From an uncultured Muribaculaceae bacterium (lineage in GTDB: Bacteria; Bacillota_I; Bacilli_A; RF39; UBA660): a stretch of DNA of 29,702 nucleotides. This document shows positions 4,380-12,481 of this stretch, piece after piece. Positions within the stretch are counted from its first letter, which is position 1. Every line of letters starts with the position of its first letter. The stretch covers positions 1 to 29,702 of the forward strand of contig CAZIDI010000001.1 in NCBI GenBank assembly GCA_964537805.1, given 5' to 3'. The translations under genes were made by a program, and so were the position numbers. The notes below the pieces were generated by a model. The model saw only the letters and a program-made list of their open reading frames with translations. It had not been told where the DNA came from and did not search any database.

Positions 4380-7300
4380 CTACCTTTTTAAGCAAGACTT
4401 TTGTAAGGTTAAGCTTAACTCATCTTCAAATCTTCTTTTTCCATTAAAATTTAAAAATTGTTGTTCAATTATTTTGTTTATCTCTTCTATTTTTAATAAT
4501 GGATATTTTGCTTTCATTTTAGCTTTATATCTTTGCTGTATATAGCCAAGTAATATTATTGAGTTCTCACTTCTTGGATTGTTTCTATAAGAATTACTTA
4601 AAATTAGTAATAATTGATTATCAATGGTATTAAAATAGATTTCTTCTGCTGTATTTATATCTATAACAGTCTTATCAATAATACTAGTAATTTGCTCTAA
4701 TGGAATCAACGAATTATAAACTATAGCCATTTTTTTAAAAAGAGTGGCTTTCATTAATTCTAATTTTTCTTTACGTAGTTCTAATTTCTTTTTTTCTTGT
4801 TTTAAGGCAGTACGCTCTAAGTCCATTTTCTTTTTACGTTCTAATTCTATGTTTTGTTCCTGTTTAATTTTTTTAACATTTTCTTTCAAATGATACATAG
4901 CATCAATTTCTATTTTTTTATAATAAGTTAATGGTTTATTATTTGGAAAAAGTTTGAATTCTACTAAACTTTCTCCTCTTCTTAAATGTATAATTTTTTG
5001 TTCTTCTATAGGTAACATAGAAATTGCTTGTTTTGCAATTTTCATAGTACAATCTAATTTATCTAAGAATTCACATTTTACCTCAGCAACAACTTCATTT
5101 TCCTCTTTTGAAATCTCGTTTTTCTTCGGTGCTTTTTCACGAGAAACACTGGTAATAATTCTTTGTTTCTTTTTAGCAAGTACTTGTTCTAGTTGTTCTT
5201 CGCTTTGGTTCCAGTCATACCAACAAGTTGGATCTTCTTCTAATTTTTGTTTTCCACTTTTTATTCGAAGAGAAGCTGAACCCATTGTTATTTCTAATAT
5301 TTTAGCAACTTCTTTTATTGCTTTTGGGTTTCCATCCTTTAAGCCAAAACGTAATTCGATCGCTTCATACTCTTTTGCTGTTAATCGATTATTTGCAGAG
5401 GGGCCTCTTTTAAAGGTAATACCACCTAATATTTTTTCAAGTTGTTCTTCACTTTGATTCCACTCATACCAACAAGTTGAATCTTCTTCTAATTTTTGTT
5501 TTCCACTTTTTATTCGAAGAGAAGCTGAACCCATTGTTATTTCTAATATTTTAGCAACTTCTTTTATTGCTTTTGGGTTTCCATCCTTTAAGCCAAAACG
5601 TAATTCCAATACACGATATTCTCTTTCTGTTAATTTTACTTTTTTAGGACAATTGTTTTTAATATTTTTCATCCTTGACTTTTCTTTTTCTTCAATTTTA
5701 GAAGTTGAAATATCGCTGGTATTTGATTTTGAAGTCAAAGATGGTGTTGTAGTTTCTTTTTTCATAGACCTTTTTACTATAACTTTAGGTTTAGCTGAAA
5801 TTTTCTCTTTTTTCTCTATACTTTGTTCCATTTTAACATTATTATTAGAAGATAAAGCTTCAGAATTAAAATTTTTTTCTTCTTTTGAAGAGTTTATTTT
5901 TAATTGTGCATTTTTTTGAACTGTAGATTCAGGAGTTTTTGGAATCAAAGATGGTATGGAAGTTCCTTTTGCTATAGTTTTTTTCATTATAATTTTAGGT
6001 TTAACTGTACTTTCCTCTTTTTTCTCTATTTTCCAAGATTGTGCTTGAGGTACAAAACTCATACTTTTTGTCCCTGTTGTCGCTTTTAATGTGGATGGTT
6101 TTGATTTTCCACCGCCTGGGAAATAATAATCTTTTATTTTACTTACACTCCTTGAATTTCTTAATTTTCGTAAGGCTTTCACCTCAATTTGACGAATTCG
6201 CTCACGCGTAACTCCAAATTCTTTTCCTACTTGTTCTAGAGTTCTTACTCGTCCATCTTCAAGGCCAAAACGCAAACTTAATACTTTTTGTTCTCTTTCC
6301 GTTAAATCGGACATTATAGATTTCAAGTCTTCCTTTAACTTTTCAGATATAATAAAATTCTCTGGTAATAAAACATTTTCATCTGCTACAAAATCCCCTA
6401 ATAAAGCATCTTCATCGTCTCCAACAGGTGTTTCTAATGAAACCGGGTCTTGGGCAATTTTTAATATTTCTAAAACATCATCTTCTGAAATACCCATTTC
6501 ATCGCCGATTTCTTTAGGAGTTGGTTCACGACCTAATTCTACCATAAATTGTCTTTGAATTCTTGCTAATTTATTAATTCTTTCTACCATATGTACAGGA
6601 ACACGAATTGTCTTTGCTTGGTCGGCTATAGCGCGAGTAATCGCTTGGCGGATCCACCAAGTCGCATAAGTAGAAAACTTAAATCCTTTTTTATAATCAA
6701 ACTTTTCTACGGCTTTCATTAGCCCTAAATTTCCTTCTTGAATTAAATCTAAAAAAAGCATTCCTCTTCCTAAATATTTTTTAGCAATACTAACGACTAA
6801 ACGCAAATTGGCTTCTTGAAAATGTTCCTTAGCTTCTAAGTCTCCTTCTTCCATTTTCTTAGCAAGTTCTTTTTCCTCTTCAGCAGAAAGCATCGGAATT
6901 TTCCCTATTTCTTTTAAATACATACGAACTGCATCAGATACGCCACTACTTTCTAGTTCTTTTCCTAAATCTTGGAAATCTTCCTCATTCAATTCTTCTT
7001 CATATAATTCTTCACCCTCTAAAGAATCCAAATTCATACCCAAGCCATTTTGTGCACGATAGGCATCACATAAACTTTGAAAAGTTATGCTTCCTTGATG
7101 TATTTTTTCAAAATCTTTTTCGTTTCCTTCACAATCCTTACAAAATTTTACAAACAAATTATAAAAAATGGGTTGTTTTAAAAGAATATCAATTTCATCT
7201 TCACTAAAAGAATAATCAATGGTATCTAATAAATGAAACACGGGTTTCACTTTCTCTGCTAATTTTTTATAAGGACTATTGACATTTATATTTAACATTT

Positions 7301-7487
7301 TGATATAGTTAAGAATACCATCTATATCCATATGTTCTTTAGCATAGGCCATCATTGCTATATGAAAGGCACGATTTACATCCTTTTCTTGACTTGCTCG
7401 ATTATAAAGAATTAAAAACTCTTCCTCCGAGATATCGATATATTTATATTTATTTTTTAAACTACTTTGGTTACTATCTAATGCCAT
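4380..7487 (-). CDS. rpoD: RpoD/SigA-family sigma factor (~1035 aa) with atypical N-terminus and ~580-aa C-terminal extension; probably a paralog, not the housekeeping copy
   Basis: Region 1.2 [11 protein letters not shown], region 2 [49 protein letters not shown], region 3 GREPT/SLETPVG, region 4 [28 protein letters not shown]. Start at 7487 (AAGGTGG RBS). No adjacent dnaG. Confidence 0.9.
5191..5606. repeat. Tandem coding duplication of a sigma region-4 HTH module (period 249 nt = 83 aa)
   Basis: 5191-5357 vs 5440-5606: 167 nt with 4 mismatches; 5232-5357 and 5481-5606 are identical over 126 nt. Confidence 0.97.
5735..6029. repeat. Older imperfect coding duplication in the K/S/T-rich linker of the sigma factor (period 210 nt = 70 aa)
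   Basis: 5735-5819 vs 5945-6029; [31 protein letters not shown] vs [31 protein letters not shown]. Confidence 0.85.
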
Positions 7488-7506
7488 AAGCCCCACCTTA
7501 GGCTTT

Positions 7507-7535
7507 ATTATAATGAAAAAAAGATTTTTTGGCAA
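7507..7535 (-). promoter_or_regulatory. SigA-type promoter of the giant sigma gene
   Basis: TTGCCA(7535-7530)-17 nt-TATAAT(7512-7507). Confidence 0.75.
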
Positions 7536-12415: not shown

Positions 12416-12438
12416 TTAAAACACCTACTATCATATTA

Positions 12439-12481
12439 AATATAAACGATAAAAAAGGGAAAGTCAATTCTAATTAGAATT
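12439..12481 (-). promoter_or_regulatory. flp promoter with abutting perfect palindrome
   Basis: TTGACT(12467-12462)-17 nt-TATATT(12444-12439); AATTCTAATTAGAATT (12466-12481) is a perfect 16-bp palindrome. Confidence 0.6.

Follow-up and report, generated by a model that had tools for sequence, protein, structure and literature searches.

A giant RpoD-type sigma factor paralog with region 4-derived modules in a variable slot between Tad pilus and ruvAB genes of an uncultured gut bacterium

The sigma factors of groups 1 and 2 described so far all end, to our knowledge, about 10 to 20 residues after region 4, and we know of no report of tandem region 4 copies behind a sigma core. Among the extracytoplasmic function (ECF) sigma factors, ECF41, ECF42 and ECF56 carry C-terminal domains such as SnoaL-like or TPR. 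The present study deals with a giant sigma factor gene of an uncultured gut bacterium, deposited as Muribaculaceae and placed by GTDB in Bacilli_A, RF39, UBA660 (assembly GCA_964537805.1). The window, that is, the whole stretch of DNA analysed, comprises 29,702 nucleotides (positions 1 to 29,702 of contig CAZIDI010000001.1), and the gene lies on its reverse strand between a Tad pilus operon and ruvA. Like group 1 and 2 sigma-70 factors, its product, called P0001 here, has regions 1.2 to 4 in order, passes the RpoD_Cterm model and has reading motifs identical to those of SigA. Unlike them, it runs 580 residues past region 4 with sigma-derived domains, begins with a new N-terminal domain and is not linked to dnaG. 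The giant gene is very probably an accessory, group-2-like paralog of SigA, with its own sigmaA-type promoter, in a variable slot between the Tad/Flp genes and ruvAB.

The central part of P0001 is a complete RpoD-type core, with regions 1.2, 2, 3 and 4 following one another in the Pfam scan (residues 185 to 455):

4380..7487 (-): coding sequence of the sigma paralog P0001, 1035 aa, stop codon included
6837..6935 (-): sigma region 1.2, residues 185-217 (Pfam Sigma70_r1_2, 60.9 bits)
6612..6815 (-): sigma region 2, residues 225-292 (Pfam Sigma70_r2, 81.4 bits), with the same -10 motif as the resident SigA
6357..6584 (-): sigma region 3, residues 302-377 (Pfam Sigma70_r3, 92.1 bits)
6156..6314 (-): canonical sigma region 4, residues 392-444, with the TRERIRQIE motif (Pfam Sigma70_r4)

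A preliminary description, made from the letters of the window, had proposed intact regions 1.2 to 4.2 with canonical -10 and -35 contacts. Both proposals hold, as all four regions are matched by Pfam within residues 185 to 444 and the motifs are those of the resident SigA. Regions 2 to 4 of the core share 68% identity and 84% similarity with this SigA, and the -10, extended -10 and -35 (TRERIRQIE) reading motifs agree in both. Judged by this likeness, P0001 keeps every element for binding core RNA polymerase and for reading ordinary -10, extended -10 and -35 elements, and it should therefore be able to bind core polymerase and read sigmaA-type promoters. In the NCBIfam comparison, P0001 reached 380.9 bits against RpoD_Cterm (TIGR02393, cut-off 354; 371.9 bits in the genome scan) and 497.8 bits against the full-length RpoD equivalog of Bacillota (NF006666), below its cut-off of 572. 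Passing the former and missing the latter is as expected for a group-2-like paralog. By its domain content P0001 is not an ECF sigma factor, regions 1.2 and 3 both being found by Pfam.

The preliminary description had further taken the giant gene for a paralog and had raised the question of a separate dnaG-linked sigA. Such a gene was found in the same genome, divided over the ends of two contigs. A second RpoD-type gene ends contig C12, where its truncated piece scores 383.6 bits against RpoD_Cterm and is followed by a trmK-like methyltransferase gene. Contig C69 has at its start the N-terminal piece of sigA, which immediately follows dnaG. The overlap of the two pieces is 'VS' (...NLRLVVS / VSIAKRY...), giving a SigA of about 365 aa in the order dnaG-sigA-trmK:

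C69:3-425 (-) and C12:16765-17445 (-) (L017, L009): sigA pieces, split between contig ends inside the conserved region 2

The SigA proteins of the bacterial family to which the host belongs score about 400 bits against RpoD_Cterm at lengths of 360 to 380 aa. The assembly break inside sigA probably stems from sequence common to both sigma genes. Since the dnaG-sigA-trmK arrangement is present elsewhere in the genome, the giant gene is regarded as a paralog and not as the housekeeping sigma factor.

The open reading frame (ORF) at 4380..7535 (-) is open throughout and is the longest in its neighbourhood. The start codon is ATG 7487, 4 bases downstream of AAGGTGGGG, and the N-termini of the relatives likewise read MAL..., as in P0001. 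The alternative start TTG 7535 was ruled out because it overlaps the -35 hexamer, whereas ATG 7487 has a ribosome-binding site and matches the relatives' N-termini. The following signals precede the gene:

7491..7499 (-): ribosome-binding site AAGGTGGGG
7507..7535 (-): sigmaA-type promoter of the giant sigma gene, TTGCCA-17 nt-TATAAT, 11/12 matches; both hexamers kept in the relatives' loci L018, L019 and L156
7541..7558 (-): terminator-like hairpin and T-run after tadC, kept in the alignment with three relatives

A second promoter-like site lies before ruvA, at 4369-4341. Considering the hairpin after tadC, the conserved promoter of the gene itself and the separate promoter-like site before ruvA, the giant sigma gene is most likely monocistronic and read by sigmaA.

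Behind region 4, P0001 continues from residue 455 to residue 1035. The count of 580 residues agrees with the earlier estimate of about 580 extra residues, and the extension is made up of the following parts:

5637..6122 (-): basic K/S/T-rich low-complexity linker, residues 456-617 (162 residues), pI 10.1
5388..5636 (-): extra sigma-4 helix-turn-helix (HTH) module 1, residues 618-700, followed by the WxEWN helix (Pfam, BLASTP, alignment)
5139..5387 (-): extra sigma-4 HTH module 2, residues 701-783, tandem twin of module 1
4932..5072 (-): predicted degenerate sigma-4-like module, residues 806-852 (AlphaFold2 and structural matches)
4716..4931 (-): predicted single 72-residue K/E-rich helix, residues 853-924 (AlphaFold2)
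4383..4715 (-): conserved terminal helical bundle, residues 925-1035 (AlphaFold2), the last 80 residues sigma-region-2-like in structure

The linker holds an in-frame 93-nt repeat (5727-5819 and 5937-6029, 80% identical, 210 nt apart), which encodes two copies of a K/T/S/P-rich segment. The extension is basic throughout, with pI values of 8.8 to 9.1 for the modules, 9.8 for the long helix and 9.0 for the bundle, whereas the core is acidic (pI 5.6).

Modules 1 and 2 are supported by their sequences as genuine derivatives of region 4 with a changed recognition helix. Scanned alone against Sigma70_r4 (PF04545, gathering threshold 24.1 bits), residues 618-666 of module 1 reach 26.5 bits, above the threshold, and residues 701-750 of module 2 reach 20.7 bits, just under it; the Sigma70_r4 total on P0001 is 103.5 bits over three stretches. 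Furthermore, the protein's own region 4 matches the two modules by BLASTP with E values of 2.7e-8 and 4.1e-6. Over 70 aa, modules 1 and 2 share 86% identity. The two form a 249-nt in-frame tandem duplication, in which 5181-5385 and 5430-5634 are 92% identical. In a gap-free alignment with canonical region 4, the modules retain the 4.1 helix and the turn (L-T/S-x-x-E-Y-x-V-L-x-L-R-F/Y-G-L-x-D-G) as well as the HTH scaffold, and each adds a helix with the WxEWN motif. Both the two region-4-like modules and their altered recognition helix, as first described, are thus borne out by these matches and by the alignment. In several orthologous modules the recognition helix contains S/T, for example QSTIS, a feature which we take to be typical of ECF-type regions 4.2.

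The tail of the protein was approached through structure prediction. AlphaFold2 modelled the last 246 residues with a pLDDT of 92. A fourth, degenerate region-4 module had been proposed in this part; by sequence alone it finds no support (BLASTP E 0.27), but the model and its structural matches speak for it. Residues 7 to 105 of the tail model match sigma-4 structures. Specifically, the degenerate unit superposes on a sigma-70 region 4 protein of the AlphaFold database (AFDB) with an rmsd of 2.1 over 79 residues (probability 1.0), on region 4 of the Swiss-Prot entries SigE and RpoH (probability 0.95-0.98) and on region 4 of SigL, SigR and sigmaE in the PDB (Z 5.7-6.5).

The end of the protein had been described as a coiled coil and an unknown tail, and it is not entirely unknown. 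The last 80 residues of the terminal bundle resemble sigma region 2 of SigB (VIA-align Z 8.3, rmsd 2.2 over 75 residues), followed by SigW (Z 7.3) and sigmaE region 2 (Z 6.9), and at least 15 sigma-2 entries stand among the top 50 VIA-align matches. One AFDB cluster also pairs the bundle with sigma-2 (probability 0.91). Z values of this size are common among helical proteins. Profile-profile comparison (hhalign) gave no sequence support for a sigma-2 bundle (probability 4.6%), and Foldseek found no sigma-2 match for it in PDB and Swiss-Prot. Therefore, the bundle, as modelled, appears sigma-2-like in shape and is not called homologous. An Atlas feature search with the tail was uninformative (scores of 0.81 or less).

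The long helix may, from the model, be either a coiled coil or a rigid single helix. In a scaffolding or localising role, helix and bundle would oligomerise the sigma factor or dock it on another structure, such as the nucleoid or the platform of the Tad pilus, with the sigma-4 modules as mere spacers. We consider this role improbable. The partial heptad pattern of the 72-residue helix (57% hydrophobic at a/d) fits it, as do the bundle, which is the most widely shared part of the protein family, and the constant adjacency of the gene to the Tad operon. However, the helix consists of E, K and R to 43% and varies in length among relatives, like a single-helix spacer, and no transmembrane segment was seen on reading the P0001 translation. 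Prediction of a tail homodimer (residues 804-1035, two copies) scored 0.00, which is evidence neither way.

The N-terminus of P0001 is equally peculiar to its family:

7038..7487 (-): family-specific, predicted all-helical N-terminal domain, residues 1-150, in place of region 1.1, kept in 13 relatives (AlphaFold2)
6936..7037 (-): predicted acidic disordered linker, residues 151-184, pI 4.05 (AlphaFold2)

In the AlphaFold2 model of residues 1 to 225, the mean pLDDT was 80, with blocks of 83 to 94 over residues 1 to 150. Pfam found no region 1.1 (PF03979, Sigma70_r1_1) in P0001, and BLASTP showed residues 130-160 to be weakly like the region 1.1 end of the resident SigA. The proposed domain of about 180 aa replacing region 1.1 therefore stands as regards the missing region 1.1, but the folded domain comprises only about 150 residues and is followed by the disordered residues 151-184. 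No convincing fold relative of this domain was found in Foldseek against PDB (E > 0.8), in VIA-align (best Z 6.4, over 45 residues only) or in Atlas (TM 0.37 or less).

P0001 is not the only protein of its kind. Close homologs were sought by a word-indexed search of 5.8 billion proteins, which gave three relatives with the full architecture, namely P0002 (1171 aa), P0003 (1030 aa) and P0005 (1180 aa); P0003 is 47% identical to P0001 over the whole length. An exhaustive phmmer search with residues 610-1035 against 1.84 billion cluster representatives returned only 43 proteins, so that the family is rare. The long family members are mostly sigma factors of 840 to 1406 aa, and about a dozen of them have the N-terminal domain as well as the tail. 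Short-core sigma factors that have regions 2 and 4 only (P0127, P0133 and P0138) also end in the tail, and so do proteins of about 330 aa without a Pfam-detectable sigma domain (P0128, P0130). The family members come from metagenome-assembled genomes (MAGs) of uncultured gut 'Bacilli' or 'Tenericutes' of mouse, rabbit, wild mice and humans, from which their hosts appear to be RF39-like small-genome Bacilli. Across the bacterial family the profile of the tail is rare; it was found in 7 of 401 species genomes at E <= 1e-6 and was strong only in the genus of the window. The architecture had not been recognised in the preliminary description, and phrase searches of the open-access literature, which are no proof of absence, likewise found no description of RpoD-type sigma factors with repeated region 4, of giant RpoD paralogs or of free poly-region-4 proteins. 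On the other hand, P0001 is not unique but belongs to a small family sharing the N-terminal domain and the tail.

Other elongated relatives of sigma factors exist beyond this family. An extra RpoD-like gene occurs in about 30 of 100 genomes of the bacterial family, with open frames of up to 952 aa; these long RpoD paralogs lie at other loci and are without the N-terminal domain of P0001. One of them, again outside the slot between tadC and ruvA, is a 929-aa RpoD paralog with seven HA (helicase-associated, PF03457) domains behind region 4 (L053:3585-6371 (-), genome G044). Pure region-4 arrays that look unrelated to the family were also seen, the module profile giving 11 copies in P0123 and 7 in P0131, and Pfam 9 and 6 stretches, respectively. 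P0123 (L160:6001-8817) has 938 aa with about 11 tandem Sigma70_r4 and nothing else, and comes from an unrelated metagenomic genome. Its gene adjoins a transposase gene and a type II restriction-modification gene, a context unrelated to that of the giant sigma gene.

The giant gene occupies a recurrent place. The order flp, tadE, tadZ/cpaE-like ATPase gene, cpaF, tadB, tadC, sigma gene, ruvA and ruvB holds in the window, for P0003, for P0005 and for the distant P0141. When the slot was surveyed in relatives whose RuvB is at least 84% identical, sigma genes of 476, 500, 536, 595, 717, 988, 1407 and 1451 codons were found there. In three of these loci (L077, L078 and L079) the slot is empty, tadC abutting ruvA. 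In L159 (L159:4547-14662, GCA_964430695.1), five sigma-type genes (789, 927, 265 + 320 apparently split, and 619 aa) stand between tadC and ruvA together with a tail-only gene of 327 aa. In a genome of the same genus (G383; L163:3530-6847 (-)), the slot gene exceeds 1106 codons, and the degenerate module is repeated in it at least 6 times ahead of the tail, with several near-identical copies; thus the repeat number changes within a genus. The sigma slot is therefore accessory and turns over quickly. At the other end of the operon, the flp promoter is a conserved sigmaA-type promoter. Together with the 5' leader (window 12416-12470 (-), alignment A3), it is almost invariant from the -35 hexamer (TTGACT) to the ribosome-binding site. 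This near-invariance reaches the distant relative L156 and exceeds the need of a promoter alone.

In L068, whose RuvB is 94% identical to that of the window, the gene directly upstream of ruvA encodes a stand-alone protein of 541 aa (L068:3746-5371 (+)) that has five tandem sigma-4 HTH modules, the long helix and the tail but lacks a sigma core. A Tad operon was not found within 3.7 kb upstream of this gene. Hence, the extension is a unit in its own right, which occurs behind different sigma cores as well as free-standing. The occurrence of this unit bears on the idea that P0001 is a pro-sigma factor whose extension is cut off to leave an ordinary sigma factor of about 455 residues. The long low-complexity linker directly after region 4 would be open to proteases, and processing of sigma factors is known from SigE and SigK, although it is N-terminal there. 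Nevertheless, cleavage is very unlikely to be the purpose of the architecture, with no protease gene among the listed neighbours. Of the three functions first suggested for the extra HTH domains (reading of further upstream sites, competition for the beta flap, and removal by processing), the last looks the least likely, because the extension appears to be a conserved, confidently folded, multi-domain unit that also occurs alone.

One may also ask whether misassembly created the gene as a fusion or whether it is a relic without function. The MAG (1.04 Mb) is divided into 120 contigs and 71% complete, and relatives do show decay. Besides the split RpoD-type gene in L159, the orthologous gene in L019 (L019:7568-12881, GCA_948716395.1) is split into a 134-aa N-terminal piece and a 1180-aa piece. 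Its 3' end is replaced beside a Tn916-like integrase/Xis/FtsK element, and thus a mobile element would have inserted into the end of the gene. For the gene in the window, however, an artefact is hardly credible. In DNA of only about 29% G+C, an open frame of 3.1 kb is far beyond chance. Independent assemblies of relatives have the same continuous ORF across the junction of region 4 and extension, and the architecture recurs in P0002 and P0003 with sigma-4 HTH copies and in P0141 with N-terminal domain, core and tail. All the domains are conserved and give good models.

What the extension does can be approached from these observations. Tentatively, and with less than even confidence, we favor the reading that the extra HTH modules are a tethered DNA-binding array acting as a built-in activator or UP-element reader. 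Region 4 would sit on the -35 element with its C-terminus pointing upstream of the promoter. With the basic linker of about 160 residues, the extra HTH modules would then reach the DNA upstream of -35, where they would steer the giant sigma factor to a subset of sigmaA-type promoters or hold it there. In relatives, the extension unit would work in trans as a free protein. The net-basic extension, the conserved promoter and terminator and the tail model at pLDDT 92 are in favor of this reading. Binding to nucleic acid is predicted for HA domains, which are small helical modules, and their array in the 929-aa paralog of G044, in the same position behind region 4, would by analogy count for it too. 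DNA binding by the modules, its target promoters and any tie to Tad pilus expression are what we infer here.

Several observations weigh against an array that binds DNA. The four positions of region 4.2 that contact the -35 hexamer TTGACA are replaced in every module and vary between orthologs, a pattern compatible to the same degree with changing specificities and with loss of DNA binding. Conservation within the modules is highest in the 4.1/LRFGL segment. This segment is the face of region 4 for protein contacts, and its conservation suits a protein-binding role too. No DNA target of the modules was found when the palindrome upstream of flp was examined; this 16-bp palindrome, just upstream of the flp -35 hexamer, was dropped as a candidate, not being kept in L018, L019 and L156. 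Moreover, the link with the Tad pilus consists in adjacency only. The gene has a promoter of its own and is parted from tadC by a terminator, and three close relatives have the Tad operon but no sigma gene there.

The same features could instead mean that the modules mimic sigma-4 and act as decoys, binding the partners of region 4 (the beta-flap tip, anti-sigma factors, activators or phage proteins) and not DNA. Within the sigma factor they would autoinhibit or buffer, the free poly-sigma-4 proteins would be sponges, and the turnover of the locus would reflect an arms race. We hold this to be possible, though rather unlikely. In the modules, the 4.1 helix and the LRFGL-DG turn show strong conservation, but the positions contacting -35 are lost and variable, which would fit a decoy. 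The locus is hypervariable: it has between zero and five sigma genes, which range from 476 to 1451 codons, and near-identical repeats have expanded within one genus. Free poly-sigma-4 proteins also occur, L068 having five copies and P0123 eleven. PhyR provides a precedent for sigma mimicry. Yet no anti-sigma, phage or defence gene was seen adjoining the locus in the listed contexts. PADLOC matches the sigma core only, to MzaA; PHROGs gave one weak sigma-factor match (E 0.0014); and tblastn found no kin of the extension in a phage genome collection of 50,697 records. Furthermore, the extension is positively charged overall, which is more in line with binding of nucleic acid.

Taken more broadly, poly-sigma-4 arrays could be a new functional unit, reading extra upstream DNA or decoying proteins that target region 4, and the 'sigma island' of small-genome gut Bacilli could be a rapidly evolving locus of regulation or conflict; in this general form the proposal is speculative and we think it unlikely. 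Extra copies of the domain that binds -35 are found here in a protein that should compete with SigA at the same promoters. If DNA is what the array binds, as we tentatively prefer, P0001 would be a natural sigma-activator fusion and a simple model of how promoter choice is rewired without altered -10 and -35 readout. If it binds partners of region 4, it would represent a new form of sigma mimicry. The host lineage is made up of uncultured gut bacteria whose genomes measure about 1 to 1.5 Mb and encode few regulators. For such small genomes, a variable multi-copy sigma locus beside a colonisation pilus operon is unexpected. The proteins look soluble and modular.

Among the known systems, MzaA is comparable to P0001 as a long RpoD-like sigma factor (about 700 residues), and it belongs to the accessory anti-phage system MZA. 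The core of P0001 scores 346.6 bits against the MzaA model (NF041931, NCBIfam) with a cut-off of 800, and 215 bits in PADLOC. In contrast to P0001, MzaA has its extra part at the N-terminus and not at the C-terminus, and the match covers the sigma core only. The domains listed for the relatives' neighbouring genes suggested no Mza partner genes, although no dedicated search was made. PhyR likewise has sigma-derived domains outside a working sigma core, and by analogy only it may serve as a conceptual precedent for decoying. PhyR, however, is one degenerate sigma-2/sigma-4 unit with a receiver domain, and P0001 has no receiver domain. No sequence relationship between the two proteins was found.

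The ECF sigma factors with C-terminal extensions, of which the ECF56 factor SigG1 has been described (PMC7730460), share with P0001 a regulation or activity built into a domain fused behind region 4. Short-core sigma factors that carry the tail of P0001 do occur (P0127, P0133 and P0138). Where the ECF proteins join a minimal sigma-2/sigma-4 core to one sensory or regulatory domain, P0001 joins an RpoD-type core to repeated sigma-4 modules and a sigma-2-like bundle. By its sequence, P0001 is thus assigned to the sigma-70 family as an RpoD-type, group-2-like factor, and not to the group 1 housekeeping, MzaA or ECF sigma factors. Its domains are familiar, whereas their architecture and their locus are new.

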